64,000 nt of DNA from NCBI GenBank assembly GCA_002030015.1, contig LQBH01000057.1, forward strand, positions 35,470 through 99,469, read 5' to 3'. Below the pieces are notes generated by a model. That model was not told where the DNA came from. It searched no databases and saw only the letters and a program-made list of their open reading frames with translations. Shown one piece after another: positions 20,103-56,128 of the stretch. Positions within the stretch are counted from its first letter, which is position 1. Each line of letters begins with the position of its first letter. This stretch comes from a delta proteobacterium MLS_D (GTDB lineage: Bacteria > Desulfobacterota > Syntrophia > Syntrophales > UBA2210). Made by a program: the position numbers and the translations under genes.

Positions 20103-20783
20103 TCATACCACGCTCATTGATTCCAGTATTCTAACCGCTTCAAAACCATCGGAGCAATACGCGTCCGCTCCGATTGCCTCAGCGTATTCCTTTGAAACGG
20201 CGGCGCCGCCTACGAAAATCTTTACCTGCTCGCGCAGGCCGGCGGCGTTGAGCGCTGTCACAACCTCGCCCATGACGAGCATGGTGGTGGTAAGCAACGC
20301 CGACAGTCCGAGGAACGCCGGCTTGTGTTCCCGGACATAGTCCACTATTTTGTCTGTGGGCACGTCGATGCCCAGGTCGACTACCTCGTATCCCGCCCCC
20401 TTTACGAGGATGGAAACAATGTTTTTCCCGATATCGTGTATATCCCCTTTCACGGTGGCGATAGCAAAGGTTCCCTTCGGCTTGACGTCGGTCCCGGCCA
20501 GAAGCGGTTTCAAAATGTCCATGGCCTCGCTCACGGCTTCGGCCGACGCCAGCATGTCGGGAACGTAGTACTCACCGGCGTTGAATTTCTCCCCCACGAT
20601 TTCCATACCTGCCGTCAGCCCACCCGTAATGATGTCCTGAGGCGGTATGTGTTCGTCAATCGCCCGCTGCGTCAATTCGACCACGCCTGGACCGGTAACG
20701 GTATCATCGACCCCTTCATCTTCACCGGTCATGCGGCCCTGGATGACATTTTCCTTGAGCATGGCAATAATATCGTCACTCAT
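20103..20783 (-). CDS. Methyltransferase-cognate corrinoid protein (B12-binding cap + Rossmann domain)
   Basis: 226 aa with the DxHxxG motif (GDIHDIGKN), SALLTT and GGA blocks typical of MtgC/MttC-type proteins. A GGGAG RBS is present. Confidence 0.85.
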   Translation of the reverse strand: MSDDIIAMLKENVIQGRMTGEDEGVDDTVTGPGVVELTQRAIDEHIPPQDIITGGLTAGMEIVGEKFNAGEYYVPDMLASAEAVSEAMDILKPLLAGTDVKPKGTFAIATVKGDIHDIGKNIVSILVKGAGYEVVDLGIDVPTDKIVDYVREHKPAFLGLSALLTTTMLVMGEVVTALNAAGLREQVKIFVGGAAVSKEYAEAIGADAYCSDGFEAVRILESMSVV

Positions 20784-20835
20784 GACAAACTCCCTTCTTT
20801 ATCAGCGGCGCCGGGATAATTGTTCCGCGCACCGG

Positions 20836-22377
20836 TTACGATTCACCATCCCGCTCCGAAGGATGAAGCCGCGGCAGCAATCCCGGAATATCCCGGAAAA
20901 CCCGCTCGGCGGTTTCGCGTTCAATGTGATTGACCGGACGGGACAGCAATTCTTCCATCCGCTGCTGCGCCTTGAAAAATACCTCGTCCTCATTCCCTTC
21001 ATAGGGATAGGGAGACGACAGCAATCCTTTTCGAAGAACCCTGCGGACATATCGAATGAACAGCTTGTGTGGTGAAGCGAGTACTTCCCGAATCTGGCGG
21101 GCCATGGTTTCCAGTTCATCTCCGTCCAGCCGGGGTCCCTGAAAGAAATATTTAATCATACTGAAATGAGTGTCGTCGATGACCGCCTGGAGCGGCGAGA
21201 ATGCGGCGTTGCAGTCCAGAAGCCCGTAGGCGCAGTGCAGATACTGGGGACCGCTGAGGGTGACCAGTATGTTTGAAAACAGCCGTTCAACCGTGGACTG
21301 CTGCCCCGGAAATGCCGGGTCGCAGACGCCGGAGGTGGAGTAGTTGGGAATACCGTAGTAACGCGCCAGCTGTGTGCAGTCGATCGTGTACTGACTCGTC
21401 TCGACGGCGCCGTATGAATCGGCGAGATTGTCCATGCGGGTTCTCACGGGGACCGTGCCGTATAGGATGGGCGTCCCCGGATTGACCAGCTGTCCCAGAA
21501 CGATGCCGGCAAGCACTTCGGCGTTGATCTGGGCGATGATGCCCGCTTCGTGAATAGGCGCGGTGGTTCCGGCCTGCGGGGATGACGACACTGCCACGGG
21601 TATGCCCCGACGGCAGATGTCGATAAACGATCCCGTCGTCTCATCGACAAACTGGAGCGGACTTTTCACCAGGCAGGTGATGAATGACAGGATCGGATTT
21701 TCTTGCAGTTTCTCGTCGTCACCGGCGATGATCGAGGCCATGGCCAGCACGGTATCGAGTTGATCCGGTTTTGTAAGACCAACCATCACATGTTTTGTCG
21801 TATTATCGAGGCTGGCGTAGACCTTGTTGACATCCTTGATGTCTTCGGTGATGTCGGCGTCCTGAATATTGACGTTGCGGATGAACCCGTCCAGCGTTTC
21901 CAGGTGTTCCGAGAGACGGGCCGACAGACACAAGTCGGCCAGCATGCCTCTGCGCGGTTTGAATTCGGCGACCCTGATTTCCTTCACCGGATCGGACTTT
22001 TTCACGTAGATGGGAAATTCAGCGTCGACCCAGGTATTCGCCTCGGAACCGGTCACGAAATACACCCGCGGTTCCCTTCCGTCCATTACCAAGGCGTTTT
22101 CGGAGTTCCTGGCCCCGAGCGTAATAACGGCGGGAGCCGACTGCAGACCCCGCTCGACAACTCCCGGTGGAATTTTCACGGTCCGGTAAGGCGGGGGACC
22201 CTGCATGAGGACCGAAACGTCGGCGCCGGCTTCGGCGAAAATCGACGCCGCCTCGTCGTTATAACAGACAAGACCGGGGTCGCTCAGAATGGCCAGCGAC
22301 GCCCGGTGAATATCGTCGATCTGCTTCCGTGACAGACGTTCCAACGGCGCCGGTATCAGCAGTCCCTGTCGCGGCAT
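20836..22377 (-). CDS. MttB-superfamily methyltransferase, non-pyrrolysine type (paralog 1, 513 aa)
   Basis: The N-terminus (LSRKQIDDIHRASLAILSDPGL) and the RRGIPV and NPGTPILYG blocks are typical of the family. The ORF is uninterrupted with no in-frame TAG. A GGGAGG RBS is present. Confidence 0.85.
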   Translation of the reverse strand: MPRQGLLIPAPLERLSRKQIDDIHRASLAILSDPGLVCYNDEAASIFAEAGADVSVLMQGPPPYRTVKIPPGVVERGLQSAPAVITLGARNSENALVMDGREPRVYFVTGSEANTWVDAEFPIYVKKSDPVKEIRVAEFKPRRGMLADLCLSARLSEHLETLDGFIRNVNIQDADITEDIKDVNKVYASLDNTTKHVMVGLTKPDQLDTVLAMASIIAGDDEKLQENPILSFITCLVKSPLQFVDETTGSFIDICRRGIPVAVSSSPQAGTTAPIHEAGIIAQINAEVLAGIVLGQLVNPGTPILYGTVPVRTRMDNLADSYGAVETSQYTIDCTQLARYYGIPNYSTSGVCDPAFPGQQSTVERLFSNILVTLSGPQYLHCAYGLLDCNAAFSPLQAVIDDTHFSMIKYFFQGPRLDGDELETMARQIREVLASPHKLFIRYVRRVLRKGLLSSPYPYEGNEDEVFFKAQQRMEELLSRPVNHIERETAERVFRDIPGLLPRLHPSERDGES

Positions 22378-22405
22378 AGTGCTTTTCCTCCCTGTTTTCA
22401 GTCGT

Positions 22406-23203
22406 TTATTGCACCAGTTCTCCCCTGCGATAGGACCTGATGAAGCGTTTACAGCGACTATCCCGGCCGGTCAGGAGATCGGCCGTGGCGACAAGCGTCA
22501 TCAGCCGCTTGTCCAGGGGATTGAGAATCGCGGCGTCAAGTCCGGCCGCGGCAGCCATCAGCAGAAAAGCCCGGTTCACAATGCCCCGTGCCGGCAGCCC
22601 GTAAGAAATATTACTGAGTCCCATGACCGTTCCGGCCGCGGGATAACGCTTTTGCAGGGCCTCGATTGTTTTCAGAGTTACCCCCGCCTGGATCGAATCC
22701 ACCGAAACGGGCAGTACCAGGGGATCGAAGAATATCCGTTCTTCCGCTATGCCATGATCCGCGAGGGCCTTGACGATAACGTCCGCGGCCCGGACGCGCT
22801 CTTCAACCGTCCGCGGGATGCCGCCTTCGTCCATAACGAGAGCGATGACACAGGCGTCATTGCGGGCCGCGAGAGAACCCACCATCTTCAGTCGATCGGG
22901 TTCTGCGTTCACGGAATTTATCATCACTCTGTCGCCGCGGTACACTTCGAGCCCCGCCCGGAGCACTGACGGATCATCGCTGTCCAGGCACAGCGGTTTA
23001 TTCGTGGCCGACCGGACCACGTCCACGAGCCAGCGCATGGTGGCCGCGCCTTCTCCTCCTTCTCCCGCGTTGACGTCAATGTAATCCGCCCCGGCGGTGT
23101 CCTGTTTTCCGGCCAGGTCCGCAAGAAAAGACTCGTCCCTGCGGCCGATCGCGTCGCGGACCGAGGGGATGGAAGCATTGATTTTTTCACCGATTATGAT
23201 CAT
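22406..23203 (-). CDS. Methyltetrahydrofolate:corrinoid methyltransferase (pterin-binding, MtgA/AcsE-like)
   Basis: 265 aa beginning MIIIGEKINASIPSVRDAI, with ADYIDVNAG, INSVN and GLSNISYGLP blocks of the pterin-binding (DHPS-like) fold. A strong AAGGAG RBS is present. Confidence 0.8.
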   Translation of the reverse strand: MIIIGEKINASIPSVRDAIGRRDESFLADLAGKQDTAGADYIDVNAGEGGEGAATMRWLVDVVRSATNKPLCLDSDDPSVLRAGLEVYRGDRVMINSVNAEPDRLKMVGSLAARNDACVIALVMDEGGIPRTVEERVRAADVIVKALADHGIAEERIFFDPLVLPVSVDSIQAGVTLKTIEALQKRYPAAGTVMGLSNISYGLPARGIVNRAFLLMAAAAGLDAAILNPLDKRLMTLVATADLLTGRDSRCKRFIRSYRRGELVQ

Positions 23204-23221
23204 ACCGGTCTCCTTTCTCCG

Positions 23222-24667
23222 CTACAGTGATCTCAAGCCGGGAATTTCATCCATGATCCGACGCGCCGCAGCGTCGGGGATATACCGCTTCGGTTGTTCG
23301 GCCAGGAATGCCCTGACCGTGTCGGCCGCGCGTGCCCGTGCGTCCTTCGATCCTCGCTGTTCCCATTGTCTGCGATCATCCCGGTCGCTCAATCCGGGCA
23401 GAAACCGTTCATTGCGCATGAGCTTCCGTGTATGCGGCTGCGCCACGTAATGGCCGCCGGGACCGACATTTTTTATAATATCGAAGGCAAGTGACTCATC
23501 GTCCACTCGAATGCCCTCCACGGCACGCATGACCATGCCGATGATATCGTTATCGATGACGAGCTTTTCGTACGACGCGGTCAGGCAGAACTCGATGAAC
23601 CCCGCGGCGTCGTGAATGAAATTACCGCCCGCGAGAGCCACCATGACGGAACTCACCGCTGATTCATAGCCCGCTTGCGCGTCCGCGGTCTTAGCGTCGG
23701 TCATGCCCGCCGTGGCATAGTAGGGAAGCCGGTAGTGCTGGGCCATCTGTGCCGCCGCGGCATTGAGAAGTCCCATTTCAACGGCGCCCGAAAGATATTT
23801 CATGTCACGCAGGTCCGCGACCGACGCGACGCTGCCGTAGATCACGGGCGTTCCGGGATTCGCCAGCTGGGCAAGCATGACCCCGGCCAGGGTGTCGACG
23901 TTCTGTATGACAAGCGTTCCGGCCAGCGTTATCGGTGCCGTGGCTCCGCTGAGCGGCTCGGAGGGAACCACGACAGGAATGCCCCGCCGGGCGATCTCGA
24001 TGGTGAGACCCGAATAGTGCATGTCCAGTCTGAGGGGACTGACAACGCAGGCTACCATAGAAATGAAAGGCCTCTCCCGCAACGGTTCGGCGCCGCCGGC
24101 GACATGTTCGGCCATGCGGATCACCCGTTCCACGCCTTCAAACGTATACACTCCTCCCATGACATGTTTCCGGGTATACGTGAGGGCCGCGTAAAAACGA
24201 TTGGCGTCCACCTCCTCGGCGGCAAGATCGTTCGGGTACACGTTCAGCATGTAAAAATCGATGTGTTCCAGCCTGTCCACGAGCCGGGCCATAGACACCA
24301 CGTCTTCAAGGACGGACGGTCTCGGTCGGTCGGCTCCCGGCTCAAGCACGTTGAGCGCCGTACCTCCCGTACCCAGGTACACATTCCGCCCGCCGACGTG
24401 ACAATCGAGATCGCCGCTTTCATCCCTGCCGCAGAGACTGACGACGGACGGAGCGCCGCCGATGAGTCGTTCCGCCAGGGAGGCCGGTATTTTCAGAACA
24501 TGACCGTCGGCCGCCCGGGCACCGGCGTCGAGAAAGAGCCTCCTCGCCTCCGGAAGCCGAACCTCGATGCCCACTTCTTCAAAAACGCGGAGGGACGTTT
24601 CATGGATTCGCGACACGGCATCGTCAGACAGCGGTCTGTAGGACCCCCCTTCGCGTGTTTCCTTCAT
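23222..24667 (-). CDS. MttB-superfamily methyltransferase, non-pyrrolysine type (paralog 2, 481 aa)
   Basis: The LSDDAVSRIHETSLRVFEEVGI N-terminus and the RRGIPV and NPGTPVIYG blocks are present. The ORF is uninterrupted. Its ATG overlaps the metF stop (ATGA at 24664-24667). Confidence 0.85.
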   Translation of the reverse strand: MKETREGGSYRPLSDDAVSRIHETSLRVFEEVGIEVRLPEARRLFLDAGARAADGHVLKIPASLAERLIGGAPSVVSLCGRDESGDLDCHVGGRNVYLGTGGTALNVLEPGADRPRPSVLEDVVSMARLVDRLEHIDFYMLNVYPNDLAAEEVDANRFYAALTYTRKHVMGGVYTFEGVERVIRMAEHVAGGAEPLRERPFISMVACVVSPLRLDMHYSGLTIEIARRGIPVVVPSEPLSGATAPITLAGTLVIQNVDTLAGVMLAQLANPGTPVIYGSVASVADLRDMKYLSGAVEMGLLNAAAAQMAQHYRLPYYATAGMTDAKTADAQAGYESAVSSVMVALAGGNFIHDAAGFIEFCLTASYEKLVIDNDIIGMVMRAVEGIRVDDESLAFDIIKNVGPGGHYVAQPHTRKLMRNERFLPGLSDRDDRRQWEQRGSKDARARAADTVRAFLAEQPKRYIPDAAARRIMDEIPGLRSL

Positions 24668-25545
24668 ATGTTATTTCTCCCGGGCAGTGATATGCCGTTC
24701 AGAATTTCCTCCACGGGTCCGCTCCGGTTCATACTGTAGAAATGAAGTCCCGGGACACCGTGTTGCAAAAGGTCCTCGGTCTGCCGAACGGCATAGTCGA
24801 TACCCCGGCGTGCCACCTCGCCGTCGTCGTCCCGCACGGGATCTATCCGTTCACGCAGTTCCCGGGGCAGTGTCGCGCCGCAGAGAGATACGATTTTGCT
24901 TATCTGGCGATAGTTTATCACGGGGAAAATACCGGGAACGAGCGGCACGTTCACACCCGCCCTGTCAGCCGCGTCACGGAACCGGTAAAAATCCTCGTTG
25001 CGGTAAAACAGCTGTGTTATGACGAAATCGGAACCAGCGTCAATCTTGCGTTTCAGGTGATCGATATCCGCCTCAAAACTCTCAGCTTCCTGATGTCCCT
25101 CGGGATATCCCGCAACGCCCACGCAGAACCAGTTGTAGGAACGAATGAAATCAACCAGCTCACAGGCGTAGCCGAACCCGTCCTTCGGCCTGGTAAAGGA
25201 TGTTTCTCCCGCCGGCGGATCTCCCCGAAGCGCAAGGATGTTCTGCACGCCCTTGTCCCGTAATTCCCGAAGAATACCGTCTATCTGTTCTCTGTCAGCG
25301 CCCACGCAGGTCAAGTGAGCCAGCACCTCCACGGAAGCTTTTTCCTTGAGAAGCGAGGCTATCTCGACGGACATGTCACGCGTACCGCCCCCGGCGCCAT
25401 ACGTCACGGATATGAAGTGCGGATCGAGCTCCGCAAGGCGGTCTATCACGGGAACGAGACGGTCGATGGTACCGTCCCTGACGGGCGGAAAAACCTCAAA
25501 GGAAAGCACGCATGGGTCTGTTGCAAAGAAATCCCTAATTTTCAC
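24664..25545 (-). CDS. metF: 5,10-methylenetetrahydrofolate reductase
   Basis: MetF-like blocks include SFEVFPP, ISVTYGAGG and a C-terminal HFYSMN. I prefer the GTG at 25545 (VKIRDFF), preceded by AAAGGAGA. The maximal ORF to 25695 would overlap the upstream gene by 160 nt. Confidence 0.85.
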   Translation of the reverse strand: MKIRDFFATDPCVLSFEVFPPVRDGTIDRLVPVIDRLAELDPHFISVTYGAGGGTRDMSVEIASLLKEKASVEVLAHLTCVGADREQIDGILRELRDKGVQNILALRGDPPAGETSFTRPKDGFGYACELVDFIRSYNWFCVGVAGYPEGHQEAESFEADIDHLKRKIDAGSDFVITQLFYRNEDFYRFRDAADRAGVNVPLVPGIFPVINYRQISKIVSLCGATLPRELRERIDPVRDDDGEVARRGIDYAVRQTEDLLQHGVPGLHFYSMNRSGPVEEILNGISLPGRNNI

Positions 25546-26356
25546 GGCCCGTCGTCTCCTTTCCCCCGGTACGGCGACCAGGGCCGTTACCTCGGAAAAG
25601 GTAGGACGGGATCGAACGCCGTTCGGGACAATGTCGTCGGTCGCACCGGGTGCAGGGATTCTTGAGGACGTGACGGGTCCTCCGGCTTCCGTCAAGAATG
25701 CCGAATATACCTGAAATGGATTTCCGCGGTCTCATAAGCAGTGACGGGCTCAGGGACACGCCGATACGCTTCGTGTCAACCAGTGAAAAGAGTTTCCTTT
25801 GTTCCGCCAGCGACCAGTCGCAGTAACCGGGACTGAAACGCATGGTTACTCCTCTGCCCTTCCTGCCGAAGCGTTCCGCCATTTCCCGGTGAAAGGCGGT
25901 AACCACCGCCTCGATCGCCAGTGAACCGACACGATCAAGCAGGTACACGCCGGACAGGCGCTGCTCCGATGTCAATCGCTCGATTTCACAGTCAAGCACA
26001 GGACCGATGGTGGCGACAAAACAAACGGCCTGCGGGCAATCTTCAAGCACCCAGGCCAGTTTACTGCTGGTCAAACTTACGCCGTTTTCAAGTCTCACCG
26101 TCGCACCATCGTCGCCTTCCACTGATCTGATGGTAAAACTGAGACGAGGATGAATCAGTTCATTGAACGGGTGGTCTCCCGCGTCAGCGCCCTCCCGCAG
26201 AATGCGCTGCAGGCGTCGACCGTGTCTTCCGCCGACGAGACGGGACCACTCACGCCGTTCACCGTCGTCAAGATCATCAAACGAATCAACGATGTTTTCG
26301 AAAGAAAACAGCTGCTCCATAACCATCACGCGTAACAGGGGGAATAAAGGTTTCAC
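25535..26356 (-). CDS. MetH activation (AdoMet-binding reactivation) domain-like protein
   Basis: The blocks RFSPGYCDWSLAEQRKLFSLVD and LMRPRKSISGIFGI resemble the methionine synthase C-terminal activation domain. The C-terminus has a CxxCxxxxC motif. The start is uncertain: GTG at 26356, or ATG at 26326 or 26320. Confidence 0.65.
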   Translation of the reverse strand: MKPLFPLLRVMVMEQLFSFENIVDSFDDLDDGERREWSRLVGGRHGRRLQRILREGADAGDHPFNELIHPRLSFTIRSVEGDDGATVRLENGVSLTSSKLAWVLEDCPQAVCFVATIGPVLDCEIERLTSEQRLSGVYLLDRVGSLAIEAVVTAFHREMAERFGRKGRGVTMRFSPGYCDWSLAEQRKLFSLVDTKRIGVSLSPSLLMRPRKSISGIFGILDGSRRTRHVLKNPCTRCDRRHCPERRSIPSYLFRGNGPGRRTGGKETTGREN

Positions 26357-39602: not shown

Positions 39603-40319
39603 ATGACTCGAAAGTCCACCGGACATACACTCGATGAAACGCAGGAATCGTGGGAAATGCTGTTCCGGCGAGCCGCCACGGATCTCGGCCTGTCTCCGAC
39701 GGAGCGCCAGGTGCGACGGTTTGCGCTCTACCGCGATGAACTTATCACCTGGAACGCGAAGATGTCGCTCCTCTCGTTGAAAACGCCGCTGGACCTGCCG
39801 GTGAAACACTTCGCCGACGCCCTCACGGTCCTCCCGATCGTGACCGGCGGCCCGGCCCGGCTTCTCGACGCGGGAACGGGCGCCGGATTTCCGGGCATAC
39901 CTCTCGCCATCATGCACGAATCTCTGGAGGTTACCCTCGTTGAATCATCGCGAAAAAAAGCTTCCTTTCTCAAACAGGCCACGCGGCTCCTTGAGCTCGA
40001 AAAGGCGTCGGTGATTCACGACAGGATCGAAGAGATGATGAACGAAGCATCACAACGGGCGAGTTATGACTTCGTCGTGTCCAGGGCCGCCTTCACGACA
40101 GAGCAACTTGTCGGCATTGCCGGTTATTTCCTGAAACCGGGCGGTATGCTTATAGCAATGAAGGGTACGCCACCGGACCGCGAAATTGAGGACGCACTTG
40201 CCGCGGCCGCCCGGTTCGACATGGAGGACGCGGGACGCCGCATCCTGGAACTTCCCTTCGGAACGGGCGCGCGATGTCTTGTTCTTTTTCGAAAAAATAT
40301 CAGGCATCGCCGGCTTTAA
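39603..40319 (+). CDS. rsmG: 16S rRNA (guanine527-N7)-methyltransferase
   Basis: 238 aa with the SAM motif LDAGTGAGFPGIPLAI and the classical position upstream of parAB. Confidence 0.85.
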   Translation: MTRKSTGHTLDETQESWEMLFRRAATDLGLSPTERQVRRFALYRDELITWNAKMSLLSLKTPLDLPVKHFADALTVLPIVTGGPARLLDAGTGAGFPGIPLAIMHESLEVTLVESSRKKASFLKQATRLLELEKASVIHDRIEEMMNEASQRASYDFVVSRAAFTTEQLVGIAGYFLKPGGMLIAMKGTPPDREIEDALAAAARFDMEDAGRRILELPFGTGARCLVLFRKNIRHRRL

Positions 40320-40426
40320 CGCGCCATGCCCGGCAACCAAAATTGACCTTCTCTTCGAAATGCTTTTGTGATAGCATCGCTCACTTATCCCGTGAAATCA
40401 CGTTATGAAAGAATTTTTTCTCGGCC

Positions 40427-41197
40427 GTGCGAAACATACTATCAATTGCAAATCAAAAGGGCGGCGTCGGTAAAACAACGACCGCGATCAGCATTGCGGC
40501 GGCGCTTGCCGCCTCGAACAAGAAAATACTGCTGGTCGACGCGGATCCCCAGGCAAACGCAACGACCGGGCTGGGCATCGCCAAAAACGACGTTGCAACC
40601 GGCAATCTTTATCACGTCCTGATCGGCAGAGCCGTCGCGGACGATGTGATCATCGGTACGTCGGTTCCCATGCTCGACGTTATGCCCTCGAACCAGGACC
40701 TGGTCGGCGTTGAAGTTGAATTCGTCACCATGCCGAAACGGGAGGAACGGCTGAAAAATGCCGTGAGAAACATTGACAGAGGCTATGATTATATTATAAT
40801 CGATTGTCCTCCATCCCTGGGGTTTTTGACGGTGAACGCACTGGTAGCGTCCGACGCCCTGATCATTCCTCTTCAGTGTGAATATTTTGCGCTGGAGGGA
40901 CTGGGACAGCTCCTGAACACGGTCAAACTCATTCAGGCCCGGCTGAATCCGCAGTTATCGCTTGCCGGTATCCTGTTGACCATGTTTGATGTACGGAACG
41001 GCATTTCACACCGGGTTGCCGAAGAAGTCAGAAAATATTTTGGTTCGCGAGTGTTTGCCACGGTTATTCCACGAAACGTAAGACTTTCGGAATGTCCGAG
41101 TTACGGCATGCCGATATTTCAGTATGATGGCGCATCCCGGGGAGCCCTGTCCTACATGGAGCTCGCAAAAGAAATCCTCAACGACGGGAGACTGTAA
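40427..41197 (+). CDS. parA: Chromosome partitioning ATPase ParA/Soj
   Basis: 256 aa with the deviant Walker A NQKGGVGKTTT and a DCPPSL block. The start is GTG. Confidence 0.9.
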   Translation: MRNILSIANQKGGVGKTTTAISIAAALAASNKKILLVDADPQANATTGLGIAKNDVATGNLYHVLIGRAVADDVIIGTSVPMLDVMPSNQDLVGVEVEFVTMPKREERLKNAVRNIDRGYDYIIIDCPPSLGFLTVNALVASDALIIPLQCEYFALEGLGQLLNTVKLIQARLNPQLSLAGILLTMFDVRNGISHRVAEEVRKYFGSRVFATVIPRNVRLSECPSYGMPIFQYDGASRGALSYMELAKEILNDGRL

Positions 41198-42054
41198 TGG
41201 CCAAGAGAAACGCCCTGGGAAAAGGACTGGGGGCAATTTTTACCGACCTGGTCGACGACGGATCGCCGAAACCGCGTTACGTCGTCTGCGGCGTTGAGGA
41301 ACTGCGACCAAACTCATTCCAGCCCCGGCGATCGTTTGACGGCGATGAAATCAAGAACCTTGCTGATTCCATCAGGACAAACGGTATCATTCAACCGATC
41401 ATCGTCAGGAAAATCGATTCCGGTTACGAAATCATCGCCGGTGAGCGGCGATGGAGAGCCGCCCAGGCAGCGGGACTTCGGGAAGTACCTGTCGTCGTCA
41501 GGGAAGCGACGGACCGTGATCTCGCCGAATGGTCGCTTATAGAAAACATTCAGCGGGAGGAACTGAACCCGATCGAAGAAGCGGACGCCTACAACCGTCT
41601 GCTTTCGAACTTTCATCTTTCACAGGAAGAAATAGCCCTCCGGGTCGGCAAGGACCGCTCAACCATAGCAAATTCCCTGAGACTGCTGAAACTTCCCTCG
41701 AAAATACGGGAAGCGCTGGTTGCAGAAAAAATAACCGCCGGGCATGCCCGGGCCTTGCTGTCCCTGCAGTCCGCTGCAAAGCAGATGAGCCTGTTTCATA
41801 ACATTAACTCAAAAAAGCTTTCGGTCAGGGAAGCGGAGCGGCTCGCAAAAGAAGCCGGCAAAAAAACAGCAGCCCCGAAAAAGGAATCGCATCGTCCCGG
41901 GTTCCGGGAACTGGAAACGACGCTGTCACGATCACTGATGGCCAAAGTCGTCGTGAAACCGAAAAAACGGGGTGGAGTGCTTGAAATACGATATAGGTCG
42001 GACGACGAATTGAACAGGGTCGTAGAACGGATCCTGTCATCAGAGATCGGGTAA
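41197..42054 (+). CDS. parB: Chromosome partitioning protein ParB/Spo0J
   Basis: 285 aa with the ParB box GERRWRAA and an HTH region (SQEEIALRVGKDRSTIANSLRLL). Its ATG overlaps the parA stop (TAATG). Confidence 0.9.
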   Translation: MAKRNALGKGLGAIFTDLVDDGSPKPRYVVCGVEELRPNSFQPRRSFDGDEIKNLADSIRTNGIIQPIIVRKIDSGYEIIAGERRWRAAQAAGLREVPVVVREATDRDLAEWSLIENIQREELNPIEEADAYNRLLSNFHLSQEEIALRVGKDRSTIANSLRLLKLPSKIREALVAEKITAGHARALLSLQSAAKQMSLFHNINSKKLSVREAERLAKEAGKKTAAPKKESHRPGFRELETTLSRSLMAKVVVKPKKRGGVLEIRYRSDDELNRVVERILSSEIG

Positions 42055-42080
42055 CGACAGGAAACGTGGCAACACTCCCT

Positions 42081-42100
42081 GTATCAACAGCTGTTGATAA
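42081..42100. other. Inverted pair of DnaA-box-like 9-mers (GTATCAACA / TTATCAACA) forming an 18-bp palindrome upstream of dnaA
   Basis: TATCAACAGCTGTTGATA lies at 42082-42099. The minus-strand box TTATCAACA matches the consensus TTATCCACA at 8/9 positions. The site lies 19 nt before the dnaA ATG. Confidence 0.45.
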
Positions 42101-42118
42101 CCCTGTGTATAGGAAAGT

Positions 42119-43480
42119 ATGAATTTGGAAACTATTTGGTCCGAAAGCACTAAAATAATTAAAGACAACATCACCAAACAGAACTTCGAAACCTGGATTA
42201 AACCGATAAAAATTCAGTCCATCGAAGACAACACGGTGACGTTATCGGTGCCGAACAAGTTCTTCAGGGACTGGATTGTCGATAACTACTATTCACTGAT
42301 CTGTGACGCCGTGTCGAGTGTCGCTTCGACACACGTTTCAGTATCATTTTCTATACAGAAATCAAATAGTTCGATTCTTTCGACGGCCGAGCGGACAGCC
42401 GAAGCAGATGAAACAACCAAAGTCGAGCAGGCGACCCTTCCTCAACGACCGCTGTCGTCACTCAATCCCCACTACAGTTTCGAGCGGTTCATCGTCGGCT
42501 CGTCAAACCAGTTTGCTCACGCGGCGGCACGTTCCGTGGCGGAACAACCGGCCCATAATTACAATCCCCTGTTCATTTACGGCGGTGTCGGACTTGGCAA
42601 GACGCACCTGATCAACGCAGTCGGTCTTCTTACAACCTCACTCTATCCGAAAAAAAACGTCCTCTATGTTTCAGCCGAGGAATTCATGAATGAATTGATC
42701 AATTCGATCCGCTACGACAAAATGCCCGAATTCAGAGAAAAATACAGGAAGATCGATTGTCTCCTCATCGACGACATTCAGTTCATCGCCGGCAAGGAAC
42801 GAACCCAGGAAGAATTTTTTCACACGTTCAACACGCTTCATGATTCAGGAAAACAGATCGTCGTTACCAGTGATAAATTTCCCAAGGAAATCCAGAATCT
42901 CGAAGCACGCCTGCGTTCGCGGTTTGAATGGGGTCTCATCGCCGATATTCAGCCGCCCGAGATGGAAACACGGGTCGCAATCATTCGCAAAAAAGCGGCC
43001 GAGAACAATATGAACATTCCCGACGACGTCGTACAGTACATTGCCTCGGCGGCCGATTCCAATATTCGGGAACTTGAGGGTATACTGACGAGAATAGCGG
43101 CATACGCATCCCTCACCGGCAGTGAAATTACCGTCGACACTATCAGGGAAATCATGAAAAAACTCATGAAGCAGGTCAAAAAACAAGACATCACCGTCGA
43201 TGATATCGTCAAGGTGGTTGCCTCTCAGTTCAACATCAAGATCGCCGATCTTAAATCACAGAAAAAGAACAAGGATATCGTGCTCTCTCGACAGGTAGCC
43301 ATGTATCTGGCGCGGAAGCTCACGGAATTATCATTCCCGGACATCGGTTCGAAAATCGGCAATCGCGACCATTCGACCGTTATCTACGCCAACAATAAAA
43401 TCAGGTCCCGAATAGGCAAAGATGGAACACTGAGAAGCCTCGTGGAAGAAATCGAGGAAACCCTGCAGCGAAAAGGTTAA
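42119..43480 (+). CDS. dnaA: Chromosomal replication initiator protein DnaA
   Basis: 453 aa with Walker A GGVGLGKTHL, sensor blocks and a C-terminal DNA-binding domain (DHSTVIYA). Confidence 0.95.
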   Translation: MNLETIWSESTKIIKDNITKQNFETWIKPIKIQSIEDNTVTLSVPNKFFRDWIVDNYYSLICDAVSSVASTHVSVSFSIQKSNSSILSTAERTAEADETTKVEQATLPQRPLSSLNPHYSFERFIVGSSNQFAHAAARSVAEQPAHNYNPLFIYGGVGLGKTHLINAVGLLTTSLYPKKNVLYVSAEEFMNELINSIRYDKMPEFREKYRKIDCLLIDDIQFIAGKERTQEEFFHTFNTLHDSGKQIVVTSDKFPKEIQNLEARLRSRFEWGLIADIQPPEMETRVAIIRKKAAENNMNIPDDVVQYIASAADSNIRELEGILTRIAAYASLTGSEITVDTIREIMKKLMKQVKKQDITVDDIVKVVASQFNIKIADLKSQKKNKDIVLSRQVAMYLARKLTELSFPDIGSKIGNRDHSTVIYANNKIRSRIGKDGTLRSLVEEIEETLQRKG

Positions 43481-43559
43481 CTACCCTCCACTGTCGGGTC
43501 AACAGGAAAGCAACAGGTTCCATCAGTATAAGGAACGGTAACACAAGGCGAAATAATGA

Positions 43560-43620
43560 TTATCCACATATCAACAACCACTATTGTTACTACTATTTTT
43601 TTTATTTTTACTTGAAAGAA
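43560..43620. other. oriC candidate: perfect DnaA box TTATCCACA + adjacent TATCAACA + 40-nt AT-rich stretch
   Basis: TTATCCACA lies at 43560-43568 and TATCAACA at 43569-43576. An AT-rich run (ctattgttactactattttttttatttttacttgaaagaa) follows at 43581-43620, in the dnaA-dnaN spacer. Confidence 0.45.
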
Positions 43621-43631
43621 TAGGTGACACG

Positions 43632-47178
<3,547 letters not shown>

Positions 47179-47282
47179 TCGCCTGACGGGGGTTACGCAC
47201 CGCGCCGCGGGAATGTTCTTTCCGTGGAAGAGTTCCGTTGCACGGTGCGCCACCCCTTCGTTATAGGGAGGAAAGAAACAGA

Positions 47283-49811
47283 ATGGATCAGTTGAAGCAG
47301 CGGAATATGCCCGTCAACATAGAAGACGAAATGAAAAGTTCCTACGTGGACTACGCCATGAGCGTCATTATCGGCCGGGCCATACCCGACGTGCGCGACG
47401 GCATGAAACCGGTTCATCGACGCGCCCTGTTCGCGATGGCCGATCTGGGAAACCGCTGGAACAAACCCTATAAGAAATCCGCCCGCATCGTGGGCGATAT
47501 CATCGGCAAGTATCATCCTCACGGCGATTCGGCTGCCTATGACACAATCGTCCGAATGGCCCAGGATTTCTCGATGCGTTACCCGCTGGTGGACGGCCAG
47601 GGAAACTTTGGTTCCATCGACGGCGATCCGCCGGCCGCCATGCGGTACACGGAAAGCAGGATGGCCCGTATCGCCGACGAGATGCTCGCCGATATCGACA
47701 AGAACACGGTCGATTTCATTCCCAACTACGACGAGACTCTCGAGGAACCGGTCGTGCTGCCCGCGAGAATACCCGAGCTGCTCCTGAACGGTTCTTCGGG
47801 CATCGCCGTCGGTGTCACCACGAACATACCGCCTCACAACCTCACGGAAGTCTGCGATGCGGCCGTCGCGCTCATCAACAATCCCGAACTGACCGTGGAC
47901 GACTTGATGCGGTATATCCAGGGGCCCGATTTTCCCACGGCGGGATTCATCAACGGACGCGAGGGTATACTGTCAGCCTACAGAACAGGCCGGGGAATAA
48001 TCCGCATACGCGCCCGGGCCCTGGTTGAACGAAATGCGCGGAACGACAGGGAAAGTATCGTTATCACAGAACTGCCGTACCAAGTGAACAAAGCTTCCCT
48101 GATCGAAAAAATTTCAGATCTGGTCAAGGAAAAAAAGATAAACGGCATCGCCGACCTGCGGGACGAATCGGACCGGGACGGCCTTCGGATCGCCATCGAC
48201 CTGAAGCGCGACGAAAACGCCTCCGTCATTCTGAACCAGCTGTATAAACAGACGCCCATGGAATCAACCTTCGGCATCATCATGCTGGCCATCGACCAGG
48301 GACGGCCGAAGTTGTTGAATCTCAAGGAAATCCTTCAAAAATTTATTATATTCCGGCAGGAAGTCGTGATACGAAGGACACGCTTCGACCTTGCCCGCGC
48401 TCGGGCGAGACTGCACATTCTTGAGGGACTGATTATCGCCCTCGACAATATAGACGACGTGGTCGCGGCCATTCGTGCGTCCTCGAATCCACGGGAAGCA
48501 TCGAGCCGGCTGGTGGACGATTTCGGTCTGTCAGAGGATCAGGCGAAGGCGATTCTCGAAATGCGGCTGCAAAGGCTCACGGGCCTGGAGCGCGACAAGA
48601 TCAGGGCGGAACACCGGGAGGTGTCCGAGCTGGTTCTCGAGCTCGAAGGCATTCTCGCCGACATCCGTAAAGTGATGAACATAATCAAGGAAGAACTCGA
48701 AGACATCAAAAAGCGATTCGGTGACGAGCGACGGACGGAAATCGTACGGGACAGCGAGGAGATCGATGTCGAGGACATGATCGTTGAAGAAGACATGGTG
48801 GTTACCATATCCCACCAGGGATACATCAAGCGCAATCCCGTCAGCCTCTATACGAGTCAGCGGCGGGGCGGCCGGGGCAAGATGGGTATGGGAACCAAGG
48901 AAGACGATTTCGTCGAGAAGATCTTCATAGCTTCCAGCCACAGTCATATCCTCTTTTTCACAAACAGGGGGCGGGTCTACTGGCTGAAAGTCTATCAGAT
49001 CCCGCAGGCCGGCCGGGCGGCCAGGGGGAAGGCCGTCGTCAATCTCATTGAAATAGGCGACGACGAACACATTACGGCGTTTTTGCCCGTCAGGGAATTC
49101 GAGGCGGGGAAATATGTTTTCATGGCGACCCGGAACGGCATCGTGAAAAAAACGGAACTGCTTGCCTACTCCAATCCCCGGTCGGGCGGCATTATCGCGC
49201 TGACGCTCGACGAAGGCGATGAACTGATCGGCGTTCACCTGACCGACGGGGAACGGAACATTTTTCTGGGCACAAACCGGGGACATTCCATCAGGTTCAA
49301 GGAAACGGACGTTCGCCCCATGGGCCGCACCGCCCGGGGCGTCACCGGCATCAGAATGGAGCCGGGCGACCGGGTCGTGGGCGTGGAGATTCTTTCAGGT
49401 GGAAACTCGATCCTGACCGTGTCGGAAAAAGGTTTCGGCAAGCGGACCGACGTGGCGGAATACCGTCTCCAGACTCGAGGCGGCAAGGGCATCATCAATC
49501 TCAAAACAACGCCGCGGGTCGGTTTCGTAACCGTCGTGTTGCAGGTTTGCAATAACGAAGACGTTATGCTGATCAGTAATACCGGCAACATCATTCGACT
49601 GAACGTGGAAGATATCTCGCTGCTTCACCGGAGCACCCAGGGAGTCAAGCTGATCAACCTCGAATCCGAAGAGCGTCTCGTCGGACTCGCCCGGGCCGAG
49701 CGGGGCGAGGAACCGAGCGGCGAAGAAAACGATGTCGCCCTCGACGAAGCCGAACAGGTCGATGAAAACAACGACGCCGAAACAACGGAGGACGGTGACG
49801 ACGGCAATTAA
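47283..49811 (+). CDS. gyrA: DNA gyrase subunit A
   Basis: The blocks [28 protein letters not shown] and the active-site region AAMRYTE are present, with beta-pinwheel repeats and an acidic tail. The ATG at 47283 is preceded by GGGAGG. The track ORF opens at 47238. Confidence 0.95.
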
Positions 49812-51730: not shown

Positions 51731-52696
51731 ATGAGTGACGTAAAAATACCGGAAGATGTATGTGATTGCCTGATAGCAGGCGGCGGACCGGCCGGATTGA
51801 CGGCGGCTCTGTACGCGTCCCGGTCGGGCATGAAGACTCTGATACTTGAAGGGTCGACAACCGTGAGCCAGATCACCATCACCGACCTGGTTGAGAACTA
51901 TCCCGGCGTTCCCGATGTGGGCGGATTCGAACTGCACAGCCGTCTGAGGACCCAGGCGCTCGCCTTCGGCGCCGAGGCCAGGGCGGAAGAAATCCAGTCG
52001 GTTAAGAAGACCCGCCTGGGAGCCGTTGACGGCTGGACCGTCAGCACGGGCGATGGATCCTATCGCGCTCTGTCGGTCATCATTGCCACGGGAGCGCGGT
52101 GGCGCGCGCTCGACGTCCCCGGGGAGCAGGATTTCATCGGGAAAGGTATTTCCTATTGCGCCACCTGCGACGGTCCGTTCTACCGGAACAGTGCGGTGGC
52201 CGTGGTCGGGGGCGGTGACACGGCCGTCCAGGAAGCCCTCTTTCTGACGAAGTTCGCCGAAAAAGTGACGATCATTCACCGCCGCGATCGGCTGCGTGCG
52301 GCGGCGATTCTTCAGGAGCGTGCTTTTGCGAACGAAAAAATAGATTTCTGCTGGAACGCCGTGGTCGACAAAATCGAGGGAGAAGACGTCGTCACCGGCA
52401 TCAGGGTGAGAAAGCTGCACGGCGGCGATGAATACGTTACCCTCCCCGTGGACGGCGTCTTTGTCTTTATTGGTCTTGATCCCCTGACGGACAGTGTCCG
52501 TGGGGTTGTCAAGCTCGACGAGGGTGGCTATATTGTTACCGACGGATCTATGAGAACGTCCGAGCGGGGTCTGTTCGCCGCCGGCGACTGTATAGCCAAA
52601 CCGCTGCGCCAGATCGTGACGGCCTGCGGTGACGGCGCTACGGCGGCTCACGAGGCTTCGCTGCACGTGGATGAGCTGAAGGGCCGGCCCTACTGA
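51731..52696 (+). CDS. trxB: Thioredoxin-disulfide reductase
   Basis: 321 aa with FAD motif GGGPAGLTAALY, redox centre CATCDG and NADPH motif GGGDTAVQEA. Confidence 0.9.
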   Translation: MSDVKIPEDVCDCLIAGGGPAGLTAALYASRSGMKTLILEGSTTVSQITITDLVENYPGVPDVGGFELHSRLRTQALAFGAEARAEEIQSVKKTRLGAVDGWTVSTGDGSYRALSVIIATGARWRALDVPGEQDFIGKGISYCATCDGPFYRNSAVAVVGGGDTAVQEALFLTKFAEKVTIIHRRDRLRAAAILQERAFANEKIDFCWNAVVDKIEGEDVVTGIRVRKLHGGDEYVTLPVDGVFVFIGLDPLTDSVRGVVKLDEGGYIVTDGSMRTSERGLFAAGDCIAKPLRQIVTACGDGATAAHEASLHVDELKGRPY

Positions 52697-52742
52697 CCGG
52701 AACGGCGGCGCCACGACAGGAACAAAAAAAGGAGAAGGTGAT

Positions 52743-52988
52743 ATGCCAATCTACGAATACCGCTGCAACCGGTGCCGGGGCGAGTTTGAGCATCTGGGAT
52801 CGATGAACGACCGCGACAGTGAGGTTGAATGTCCGCTGTGCGGGGGCAGGGGCGCGGAAAAACTGATGTCCCGGTGCCAAACAAAAGTCGAGATGTCTCT
52901 TTCGGATTTCAAGGCGCTGAGCGGCGCCGCGGCCGGCGGAGGGTGCGCCGGTTGTACATCCGGATCATGCAGCACCTGCGACAAATGA
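52743..52988 (+). CDS. FmdB-family zinc-ribbon protein
   Basis: 81 aa beginning MPIYEYRCNRCRGEFE, with a second CxxC (CPLCGG) and a Cys-rich tail. The RBS is AAAGGAGAAGG. Confidence 0.7.
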   Translation: MPIYEYRCNRCRGEFEHLGSMNDRDSEVECPLCGGRGAEKLMSRCQTKVEMSLSDFKALSGAAAGGGCAGCTSGSCSTCDK

Positions 52989-53085
52989 GTCAGACGAACA
53001 CGGCGGGATCGTTCTGTCGGGAACAGGGACGACAGGGTGCCGGTATAAACGGGACGAGCAGACCCCGCGCGGCGGCCGGTGAGCG

Positions 53086-53931
53086 GTGATGGATGAAATC
53101 ATACAGATCTGGCAGCACATCCCGGCATCGCTTGACCCGGTTCTGGCACGTATCGGATCGTTCCAGATTCGGTATTACAGCCTCATGTACCTGGCGGCGT
53201 TCTTCTGCACGTACCTGATCGTCGTCCGCAGAATCAGAACAGAGAACTATGAATTTTCCACGGCCGTGATCCAGGATGTGTTTGTCTGGGGGATCGTTGG
53301 ATTACTGGTGGGAGCGCGGTTGGGCTATGTGCTGTTCTACGACATGTCCCACTTTATCGAGCACCCCCTCGAGATATTTCTTCCCGTCCAGTGGTCCGGC
53401 GACGGCGTTCTTGTTACCGGCATCAGGGGCCTGTCGTATCATGGAGGCCTGCTGGGCATTATCGCCGCAGTGGTTATTTTCTGCCGCCGCCGGGGAATCC
53501 GCGTTCTGCGGCTGGCGGATCTTTTCGCCGCCGCCGCGCCCCTCGGATACACCTTCGGACGGCTCGGCAACTTCATAAATGGTGAACTCTATGGAAAAGT
53601 CACGTCGGTTCCCTGGGGCATGTATTTTCCCCTCGATCCGACGGGACGGCTGCGGCATCCTTCGCAGCTTTACGAAGCGTTGTTCGAGGGGCTCGTGCTT
53701 TTCGCTCTGCTCTGGCCGCTGCGGCAGAAATTCCGGACCGAGGGGACCCTGTTCGGTCTGTACATCGCCGGGTACGGTATCATCCGGTTTGTTATCGAGT
53801 TTTTTCGTGAACCGGACCTGCACCTGGGGTATGTGCTGGGACCGTTCTCCGCGGGCCAGTTGTTATGCCTTGCCATGATCATAACCGGCATCGTGATGAT
53901 CTTCGTGCTGCAGAAGCGGGCAAAACGGTAA
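53086..53931 (+). CDS. lgt: Prolipoprotein diacylglyceryl transferase
   Basis: 281 aa and polytopic, with Lgt blocks YHGGLLG, GRLGNFINGELYG and HPSQLYE. Confidence 0.9.
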   Translation: MMDEIIQIWQHIPASLDPVLARIGSFQIRYYSLMYLAAFFCTYLIVVRRIRTENYEFSTAVIQDVFVWGIVGLLVGARLGYVLFYDMSHFIEHPLEIFLPVQWSGDGVLVTGIRGLSYHGGLLGIIAAVVIFCRRRGIRVLRLADLFAAAAPLGYTFGRLGNFINGELYGKVTSVPWGMYFPLDPTGRLRHPSQLYEALFEGLVLFALLWPLRQKFRTEGTLFGLYIAGYGIIRFVIEFFREPDLHLGYVLGPFSAGQLLCLAMIITGIVMIFVLQKRAKR

Positions 53932-53968
53932 TATTTGTAATACATAATAAACCAGGAGGAACGACAGA

Positions 53969-55300
53969 ATGGGAAAGCGTCTCATTATTATCGGCGGCGG
54001 CGCCGCCGGGCCATCGGTGGCGGCCGAGGCCCGTCGCCGGGATCCGTCACTGGACATCAACGTGCTTGAAGCCGGGGAGTTCGTATCCTACATATCTTGA
54101 CTGATGCCCTATTACATCGGTGATGTAATACGGCAATCGGAAGAACTCGTTGCACGGACACCGGAAAAATTCGGCGAGTCCGGCATAACAATTTCCCTGA
54201 ACACCACCGTGGAATCGGTCGATTACGACAAGGGGCTGCTGAAAACCGCCGCCGGAGAAACCATCGGATATGATCATCTCGTAATCGCCACGGGGACGAA
54301 CGCCATTCGCCCCGACATTCCCGGAATAGACCGGGACGGCGTGTTCGTGCTGAAAAATCTCACCGACGGTATCGCCGTCAAAAAGTGGGTCGAGGATAAC
54401 CACTGCCGCCGGGCCGTTGTCGTGGGGGCGGGGTTCGTCGCCATGGAACTCGCCGAGGCTTTTCGAACCCGCGACATGGATACGACGGTCGTGTACCGGG
54501 GCACACGTCCCATCAAGCGGTGGGACAAGGCCCTGACGGATATCGTCACGGAAGAACTGGAGAAAAACGGGGTCATCTTTGTTACCGGAACATCGCCGCG
54601 GGCCGTCGAGGAAAGCGGGGACGGGCTGCGCCTGGTGACGGATAACGGCGACTTCGACGCCGATGTTATCGTGTTCGGACTGGGTGTTAAACCGGAAACA
54701 TCGATAGCCCGCGATATAGGTCTGGAGATGGGAACATCGGGCGCCATCAAGGTTAATTTCTCCCAGAGGACGAGCCGTGAAGAGATATTCGCCGTGGGCG
54801 ACTGCGCCGAGGCATTCCATCGTATCCGCCGCGAATGGGTCCACATTCCGCTGGGCGATACCGCCAACAAGCAGGGCCGAATAGTCGGTTGTATCATCGG
54901 TGGCGCGCCACGCGTTTTTCAGGGCGTGGTGGGCGCCCAGAGTTTCAAGTTCTTCGGGCTGGAAATTGCGGCTACGGGTATCGACGAAGCGGAAGCCGTC
55001 GCATGCGGCTATCATCCTGAAAGTCATGTTACGAAGGGAACATTCAGGACGCCGTCAATGCAGGGCCGCGCGAGAATGAGCATCAAGCTCACCGCGGACA
55101 GGGCGACCGGGCGCTTACTCGGCGCCCAGGCGGTTTCGAATATCGGCGCCGTTGGTCGCATCAATATTCTGTCGGCCTGCCTGTGGTCGGAGATGACTCT
55201 CGACCAGATCGGGTACCTGGATTTCGCCTATTCACCTCCCTTCGGCGGGGCCTGGGATATCGTTCACCGCGCCGCCCAGGGGCTGCAGAGGAAATTGTAA
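53969..55300 (+). CDS. CoA-disulfide reductase / NADH oxidase family flavoprotein with in-frame UGA (probable selenocysteine) at the catalytic Cys position
   Basis: The ATG at 53969 follows AGGAGG and opens 43 codons with a GxGxxG fold (IIGGGAAGPS). TGA at 54098-54100 sits in the context FVSYIS-U-LMPYYIG, which matches the family motif SFANC(G/A)LPY.IG. The rest equals track ORF 54104-55300, giving 443 aa in total. A hairpin follows at 54106-54134, and selA is in the window. Confidence 0.8.
54106..54134 (+). promoter_or_regulatory. Candidate bacterial SECIS hairpin
   Basis: The structure is GCC-C-TATTACATC [GGT] GATGTAATA-C-GGC. It has a 9-bp perfect stem, plus 3 further bp beyond a C:C mismatch. 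It starts 5 nt after the TGA, and the G-rich apical loop lies about 19-21 nt 3' of the TGA. Confidence 0.65.
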
Positions 55301-55312
55301 GGAGGCTGGGCC

Positions 55313-55633
55313 GTGACTGTACGCTGTCACTACTGCGGCGGACCCGTCGGCGAGGATGTCACAATCGGTTTTCGGGATACCTGCGGCAGGTGCGGGCGTG
55401 ATCTGCACGTATGCAGGAACTGCCGGTTTTACGATCCCGGCGCCTACAACGCATGTCGGGAACCCCAGGCTGAACGGATACTCGACAAGGAGCGCGCCAA
55501 TTTCTGCGAGTATTTCGTTCCGGCGTCGGATCCGACGCCGGGAGCTCGCGGGAGTTCCTCCGGCACGGAAGACGCCGCCCGGAAACGCCTTGAAGACCTG
55601 TTCGCGGGTGGCACCGATTCTTCGAAACGGTGA
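55313..55633 (+). CDS. Cys-rich zinc-ribbon-like hypothetical protein
   Basis: 106 aa with a GTG start and AGGAGG 7 nt upstream. The Cys motifs are CHYCGG, CGRCG and CRNCRFY, plus two further Cys. It starts 12 nt after the Nox/Cdr-like gene. I do not recognise a family. Confidence 0.55.
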   Translation: MTVRCHYCGGPVGEDVTIGFRDTCGRCGRDLHVCRNCRFYDPGAYNACREPQAERILDKERANFCEYFVPASDPTPGARGSSSGTEDAARKRLEDLFAGGTDSSKR

Positions 55634-55660
55634 TGGAAAAACATGGAAAGGAGGGAGCAC

Positions 55661-56128
55661 ATGGCAGACATGAAACTGGACGACGTGATCGACAGGGCCG
55701 TGAAGCGCGAAGAGGAATCTTTCGCCTTTTACCGGGATCTCAGCGACCGTGTGGAAGATCCAGCGGTACGGGACACGCTGGAATTTCTCGCCGGTGAAGA
55801 GCGGAAACACCGGGACTTTCTGATCGCTTACCGCGAGGGACGGGTCGGCGCCGGCGGCCTGCGAATGGCTGAAGCCGTCGATTACAAGATTGCCGAGCAT
55901 CTGGAAGCGCCCGATCCCGAAAAGGATATGGAAAGCAAGGACGTCTACCTGGTGGCGGCCCACCGGGAGCTCAATTCATACCTTTTTTACAAGGAGCTTG
56001 CCGATGTCCATCCAGAGGGAGAAGTAAAAGACGTGCTTCTTCGCATCGCCTCCGAGGAAATGAAGCACAAGGAAAAGGTGGAATATCTCTATGCCAACAC
56101 GGCGTTTCCCCAGACGGCGGGAGGCTGA
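55661..56128 (+). CDS. Ferritin-like / rubrerythrin-family diiron four-helix-bundle protein
   Basis: There are two E...ExxH half-sites (EESFAFY..GEERKH and ELNSYLFY..SEEMKH). I prefer the ATG at 55661, preceded by AAGGAGGGAG. The track ORF opens at 55643. Confidence 0.7.
   Translation: MADMKLDDVIDRAVKREEESFAFYRDLSDRVEDPAVRDTLEFLAGEERKHRDFLIAYREGRVGAGGLRMAEAVDYKIAEHLEAPDPEKDMESKDVYLVAAHRELNSYLFYKELADVHPEGEVKDVLLRIASEEMKHKEKVEYLYANTAFPQTAGG

Follow-up and report, generated by a model that had tools for sequence, protein, structure and literature searches.

We asked whether the in-frame TGA at positions 54098-54100 (+) of a 64,000-nucleotide stretch of the genome of the delta proteobacterium MLS_D (Syntrophales; contig LQBH01000057.1, positions 35,470 to 99,469; the whole stretch is hereafter called the window) is a stop codon or a codon for selenocysteine (Sec), and whether the RNA hairpin that lies directly downstream of it has a role in its decoding. 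The TGA falls within a flavoprotein gene at 53969-55300 (+), at the position of a redox-active cysteine (Cys). The original prediction, made from the letters of the window alone, proposed that the hairpin is a selenocysteine insertion sequence (SECIS), and our analysis supports this interpretation. The hairpin is very probably a bacterial SECIS (bSECIS), and the UGA at 54098-54100 very probably encodes Sec in place of the single redox-active Cys of a flavoprotein of the CoA-disulfide reductase (CoADR)/NADH-oxidase family. The decisive evidence comes from comparing the Sec and Cys forms of this gene among its relatives.

The gene comprises 443 codons with Sec at codon 44, and its translation contains this single in-frame TGA, which lies in frame between a 43-codon open reading frame (ORF; 53969-54100) and one of 398 codons (54104-55300). 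In the full translation, Pfam recognizes Pyr_redox_2 (1e-58), Pyr_redox (3e-21) and Pyr_redox_dim (5e-10). The best NCBIfam models are CoADR equivalogs (7e-113); because the protein scores 377.6 bits, short of their 458-bit cut-off, we do not assign a substrate. Among solved structures, the NADH oxidase 6ruz is the best match (5e-88), followed by several CoA-disulfide reductases and NADH peroxidase. In alignments the UGA codon stands opposite a Cys, that of VSYGAC-GLPY in 6ruz and that of SYAAC-PMPYYIGDVI in homologs of full length. This Cys is the family's single redox-active one (Cys42 in NADH peroxidase, Cys43 in CoADR).

If the TGA were a true stop, the locus would be a split gene or a pseudogene, its protein would start at the ATG at 54104, and the hairpin would be irrelevant. 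Existing annotation appears to agree with this. A protein search returned 1685 relatives at E <= 1e-30, and the best 120 of these form two classes, one of about 443 aa with Cys at the UGA position and one of 398-401 aa starting with MPYYIGDV; about half of the best 120 are annotated in the latter manner, as proteins of about 399 aa. However, the 43 codons upstream of the TGA carry the indispensable FAD (flavin adenine dinucleotide)-binding GxGxxG Rossmann motif, here GGGAAG, so that the protein needs read-through, and these codons are conserved in frame at every TGA locus. Furthermore, an AGGAGG ribosome-binding site can be read from the sequence at 53954-53959 (+), separated by 9 nt from the ATG at 53969, whereas no comparable site precedes the ATG at 54104, the start that gene callers use for the shortened version. 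Shortened annotations are a usual gene-caller artefact at Sec codons, and the 398-401-aa class, judged by its sequences, consists of gene calls cut at the Sec-UGA. The databases (NCBI, JGI) name these shortened homologs only 'FAD-dependent oxidoreductase' or similar, and the selenoprotein clade is systematically mis-annotated in them. We consider a true stop highly improbable; the predicted gene product is one 443-residue FAD flavoprotein of the CoADR/NADH-oxidase family rather than a fragment of 399 residues.

The hairpin itself is as first described. After the TGA come CUG AUG CCC and the stretch UAU UAC AUC GGU GAU GUA AUA, in which nine Watson-Crick pairs, from U54110-A54130 to C54118-G54122, enclose the triloop G54119-G54120-U54121. 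This hairpin spans 54110-54130, its stem starts 9 nt past the TGA, and its loop lies 19-21 nt past the A of the UGA, which leaves a UGA-to-loop gap of 18 nt (54101-54118). Below the stem, a C54109xC54131 mismatch is followed by three further pairs (C54108-G54132, C54107-G54133 and G54106-C54134), giving the full hairpin at 54106-54134 (+). With RNAfold, the segment 54095-54150 has a minimum free energy (MFE) of -20.2 kcal/mol, compared with -9.9 +/- 2.4 kcal/mol for 200 dinucleotide shuffles (z = -4.3), only one of which folds as stably; the UGA plus 48 nt gives -18.9 kcal/mol. The MFE structure contains the hairpin and extends it by pairing CUGAU (54101-54105) with AUCGG (54136-54140) and UCUU (54095-54098) with AAGA (54141-54144). 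In this fold two bases of the UGA, its G and its A, bulge out close to the foot of an imperfect hairpin 50 nt long, so that an extended lower stem (54095-54144, +) encloses the UGA.

Not all of this structure is shared with relatives. The conserved core is an 8-bp stem, AUUACAUC/GAUGUAAU, with a GGN triloop (54111-54129, +); it is present in all 111 distinct Sec sequences and corresponds exactly to the helix that RNAalifold predicts. The ninth pair, U54110-A54130 (+), exists here because Ile is coded by ATA, and is found in 14 of the 111 Sec relatives (7 of 26 in alignment A2). The outer GCC/GGC pairs, which the original prediction had counted as part of the element, do form in the MFE fold of the window, but no more than 14-49% of Sec sequences form pairs at the corresponding positions (9-11 with 33-35). 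We therefore excluded the lower stem, from the GCC/GGC pairs outwards, from the conserved element; it is specific to the window.

The first case for selection on the RNA had been built on codon rarity, namely that TAT, GTA and ATA are unusual choices in a genome whose third codon positions are overwhelmingly G/C. Across about 19,000 codons of the long window ORFs, the G/C share at third positions (GC3) is 0.66, which does not bear out so strong a bias. Of the stem codons, GTA alone is rare (9% of Val codons), whereas TAT (41% of Tyr), GAT (40% of Asp) and ATA (21% of Ile) are ordinary minority codons. The exact set of stem codons has a joint probability of about 1e-3 under window usage. On its own, the codon-rarity argument is weak.

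The bSECIS consensus, based on the bSECISearch model of Zhang and Gladyshev, is summarised in Fig. 2 of PMC13188914, and the window hairpin agrees with the model in four of four criteria, in line with the SECIS architecture first proposed from the position of the loop. The model allows an apical loop of 3-9 nt (3 nt, GGU, in the window) with at least one G in its first two positions, N1-G[G/U]N-N2 (C-GGN-G in all 111 Sec sequences), and an upper stem of 4-16 bp (9 bp in the window and 8 bp clade-wide). The UGA-to-loop distance, 16-37 nt in the model, is 18 nt in the window and identical across all relatives. The model further sets the MFE at -7.5 kcal/mol or below, compared with the -20.2 kcal/mol of the window; the MFE of relatives ranges from about -7 to -16 kcal/mol, so that a few of them sit at this threshold. 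The hairpin shares with consensus bSECIS elements that it is a stem-loop within the coding region, immediately 3' of the Sec-UGA. It differs from them by its minimum-size loop, a triloop closed by C-G, and by having no internal loop or lower stem clade-wide.

A functional recoding signal need not act through SelB; the stem might be a generic roadblock or pausing element that slows termination at the UGA, or might serve mRNA stability. In favour of this, SelB binding is assigned to the hairpin by analogy, and conservation of GG in the loop is uninformative because the Gly codon also requires GG. However, the geometry matches the SelB-type consensus exactly, both in the 18-nt spacing and in C-GGN-G as an instance of N1-G[G/U]N-N2, and the UGA stands at a redox Cys, the classic position of Sec. 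In addition, the window contains selA, encoding L-seryl-tRNA(Sec) selenium transferase (1877-3292, -; full-length match to Pfam SelA PF03841, E = 3e-147), which indicates that the organism makes Sec-tRNA. A generic roadblock, moreover, would need no stem of invariant sequence throughout the clade. We regard a SelB-free signal as very unlikely, and read the hairpin as a bSECIS.

In the E. coli fdhF SECIS, the hairpin directly follows the UGA, the lower stem encloses the UGA, and SelB is presumed to bind the apical part. The window hairpin resembles it in lying right after the UGA, in having a lower stem that encloses the UGA, and in the presumed role of its apical part. In contrast, there is no sequence similarity between the two, and the bulged U of fdhF is not seen in the window hairpin. 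The upper stem starts 9-10 nt past the UGA here and, as reported, about 11 nt past it in the minimal fdhF element.

Relatives of the gene were collected in two ways. A protein-based genome scan, which is blind to the DNA motif, gave 80 loci, 79 of them scorable after tblastn anchoring; the aligned codon is TGA in 22 and TGC or TGT in 57. A metagenome scan used the pattern TGH NNN AYN CCN TAY TAY ATH GGN GAY NTN ATH, which permits Sec or Cys and all synonymous codons. Its matches were combined with the genome loci and the window into a comparison set of distinct 105-mers, 111 with Sec and 17 with Cys. The closest relatives come from Syntrophales and other Desulfobacterota, and the clade of the window gene spans Syntrophales, other Desulfobacterota and Acidobacteriota.

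The stem follows the TGA strictly, as opposed to TGY. In the genome scan, all eight core pairs are Watson-Crick in 22 of 22 Sec loci and in none of the 57 Cys loci. The comparison set gives the same picture: the eight pairs are intact in 111 of 111 Sec sequences (108 with Watson-Crick pairs only, three with one G-U), while none of the 17 Cys sequences has an all-Watson-Crick core. Thus neither of two observations that the original prediction had named as fatal to it, a hairpin shared by Cys orthologs or Sec orthologs without a hairpin, was made.

The difference between the two forms lies in the choice of synonymous codons. Five synonymous third positions of the stem each face a base that is fixed by the amino acid. 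In Sec forms the first Tyr is TAT in all 111 sequences, the second TAC in 110 and TAT in one, the Ile of the stem ATC in 111, the Asp GAT in 111, and the Val GTA in 109 and GTG in two; the three exceptions (TAT at the second Tyr and twice GTG) all keep the pairing as a G-U wobble. The 17 Cys forms are mixed at the same sites, with TAT 10 and TAC 7 at the first Tyr, TAT 16 and TAC 1 at the second, ATC 10 and ATT 7 at Ile, and GAT 9 and GAC 8 at Asp, whereas at Val they carry GTG in four, GTT in two, GTA in one and Ile, Leu or Met in ten. Codons whose third base lies outside the 8-bp stem vary in both forms. The loop Gly is GGT 63, GGC 35, GGG 7 and GGA 6 in Sec forms and GGC 10, GGT 4, GGA 2 and GGG 1 in Cys forms; the final Ile is ATC 85, ATA 14 and ATT 12 as against ATC 7, ATT 7 and ATA 3. 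Conserved residues that flank the stem in Sec forms also use their codons freely (Phe TTC 74/TTT 37, Glu GAA 62/GAG 41, Pro CCC 81/CCT 22). Third positions are therefore frozen in the stem, only in Sec forms, while the loop and flanks vary, which bears out the earlier suggestion that the RNA structure is selected in addition to the conserved peptide.

These codon counts also bear on the view that the hairpin has no RNA function and is a by-product of codon bias acting on the peptide YYIGDVI, which is palindromic at the codon level (Tyr/Ile, Tyr/Val, Ile/Asp). The peptide is conserved in Cys-type homologs too, and in one Cys form, the distant homolog L180, all eight positions pair, three of them through G-U wobbles; the motif therefore predisposes to the stem. 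Yet Cys forms that have this peptide mix their synonymous codons and have lost the stem. Where the peptide is identical, every pair is intact in each of the 111 Sec sequences, as against one of seven Cys sequences, L180 (Fisher p = 2e-9). Moreover, the codon set that has a probability of only about 1e-3 under window usage is identical in lineages whose flanks are 65% identical. Between pairs of sequences, the median identity is 65% for the flanks and 95% for the 21-nt core; the sequences form 82 clusters at 90% flank identity, so the invariance of the stem does not come from recent common ancestry. We consider a by-product without RNA function highly improbable as an explanation of this pattern.

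Bulk folding energy does not separate the two forms: over the 54 nt past the Sec or Cys codon, MFE is -11.6 kcal/mol for Sec and -11.7 kcal/mol for Cys. Since GC-rich genomes supply many of the Cys loci, the only informative measure is a count of pairs at the specific positions. As a separate observation, RNAfold favours in many relatives (L005, L009, L010, L013, L015, L020 and L021) an alternative helix of 6-7 bp between (UGA)CCGAUG and CAUCGG, which takes up the 5' arm and loop of the SECIS and excludes its stem. This helix may be a chance occurrence or a competing conformer.

The immediate context of the UGA is also skewed among the 111 Sec relatives. The preceding codon is GCC in 83, so that most have C before the UGA, and the following codon begins with C in 106 (CCG in 72); the window reads UCU-UGA-CUG. 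UGA-C is the weakest termination context.

Covariation adds one case. Two Sec sequences of the subclade with the motif U-E-T-P, L024 and L039, read TAC TAC ATC GGT GAT GTA GTN, encoding YYIGDVV. Here the pair between the third base of the first Tyr codon and the first base of the last codon has changed from U-A to C-G through an Ile-to-Val replacement. In a 26-sequence alignment, the 8-bp core consists of five invariant pairs, two with one-sided G-U changes, one with a compensatory change and none broken, and shifting the 3' partners reduces pairing from 92% to 23-71%.

We also built a neighbour-joining tree from the window and those 78 of the loci whose product reaches 330 aa or more. In it the Sec forms all fall into one clade, with L022, L024, L037 and L039 as a deep branch. 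Three Cys forms, L002, L007 and L014, are nested separately within this Sec clade, each with a broken stem. Their stems keep most of the sequence and carry one to three synonymous changes that disrupt pairing; that of L002 reads TAT TAT ATC GGT GAC GTA ATA, and that of L007 ends in GAC GTG ATC. Independent reversions from Sec to Cys, followed by decay of the SECIS, would produce this pattern. Decay after such reversions has been described in other families (PMC1794560, PMC13582414), and the remnant elements in L002, L007 and L014 resemble those of Cys revertants of FdhA and HesB-like proteins (PMC1794560, Fig. 4) and of Group 4 [NiFe] hydrogenases (PMC13582414). In contrast to those cases, the decay here is legible codon by codon because the peptide is unchanged.

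Several points weigh against the bSECIS interpretation. When 53900-54300 was compared with Rfam at a permissive E-value, the matches did not exceed chance level and included no SECIS family; Rfam SECIS models do not cover this type of element. ARAGORN finds no tRNA, and hence no tRNA-Sec, within the 64-kb window, and selB and selD were not recognised among window ORFs of at least 200 aa. Covariation is thin, being limited to a single compensatory pair in two related sequences, because the variable bases of the stem face bases fixed by the amino acid and compensation requires an amino-acid change. Of the comparison between Sec and Cys forms that had been proposed earlier, it is thus the differential conservation of codons that came out clearly, and differential synonymous conservation is therefore the main evidence. 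The neighbour-joining tree carries no support values. Finally, SelB binding and the actual insertion of Sec, for this gene as for its clade, are what we infer by analogy from the structure, its spacing and its association with the TGA.

By that analogy, when the ribosome reaches the UGA, the 8-9-bp stem with its GGU triloop would sit just outside the mRNA channel. There SelB, in complex with GTP and Sec-tRNA(Sec), would bind it through its C-terminal domain, as in E. coli fdhF, and SelB tethered at the A site would allow Sec to be inserted before RF2 terminates translation. Since the third positions of the stem pair with bases fixed by the amino acids, the RNA requirement would freeze codon choice, and apparently also the peptide YYIGDVI, in every Sec member.

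Homologs of CoADR and NADH oxidase that contain Sec (COG0446) are a recognised selenoprotein family (PMC9312934, PMC13188914, PMC1794560), listed since 2004 (Kryukov and Gladyshev, via later reviews) with Geobacter metallireducens as its representative. The Geobacter protein shares with the window gene its superfamily, its domain architecture and the use of Sec for the single redox-active Cys near residue 43. Its published active-site motif is UGxP (PMC13188914). The window protein has U-L-M-P, which keeps the P at +3 and lacks the G at +1; in the relatives, U-P-[MT]-P or U-E-T-P takes its place. On these motifs, the gene therefore probably belongs to a clade of the superfamily that is separate from that of the Geobacter protein and much larger. 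In published surveys, Syntrophus aciditrophicus has 19 selenoproteins, and Deltaproteobacteria have the most selenoprotein families (PMC1794560).

Further genes with an in-frame TGA (open frame on both sides, GC3 of at least 0.6) were sought across the window in a crude scan. Of about 35 candidates, the present gene alone had a recognisable redox motif, and for this reason the list was treated as noise. The ORF of a radical SAM protein (3282-4541, -) adjoins selA. The selenoprotein gene is set among redox and housekeeping genes (51731-56128): upstream lie genes for a thioredoxin-reductase-like flavoprotein (51731-52696) and a Zn-ribbon protein (52743-52988) and lgt (53086-53931), and downstream a Cys-rich 106-aa ORF of no family (55313-55633) and the gene for a rubrerythrin-like protein (55643-56128). 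Elsewhere, the window contains a chromosomal origin region at 39603-49811, with gidB, parA, parB, dnaA (42119-43477), dnaN, gyrB and gyrA, and its GC content falls to 0.47 at 42-44 kb. A methyl-transfer cluster at 20106-25695 (-) comprises genes for a B12-binding corrinoid protein (20106-20783, -), two MttB-family methyltransferases (20839-22377 and 23225-24667, -), a pterin-binding methyltransferase (22409-23203, -) and MTHFR (24667-25695, -).

More tentatively, the element could represent an unusually compact class of bSECIS with an invariant sequence, consisting of an 8-bp stem and a GGN triloop, together 19 nt, with no conserved lower stem. Such an element would be wholly encoded by a peptide that is palindromic in its codons and adjoins the active site, and its codons, together with YYIGDV(I/V), would have been frozen since a single origin of Sec from Cys. 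We consider this possible but doubtful. If it were true, the Ile-to-Val change in one subclade (TAT/ATH to TAC/GTN) would have been driven by base pairing and not by protein function, and the palindromy of the peptide would have predisposed the lineage to acquire Sec.

In summary, the finding extends a known selenoprotein family by a new member and by a large clade that is under-annotated; it is ordinary for the field and opens no new biological question. For the gene itself, the in-frame TGA gains a function, and the two ORFs read as one selenoprotein. The invariant string TGA-N9-TATTACATCGGNGATGTAAT could serve the re-annotation of the whole clade. The locus also provides a clean example of how an RNA signal constrains synonymous sites, and probably amino acids, within a coding region, with its decay visible after reversion from Sec to Cys.

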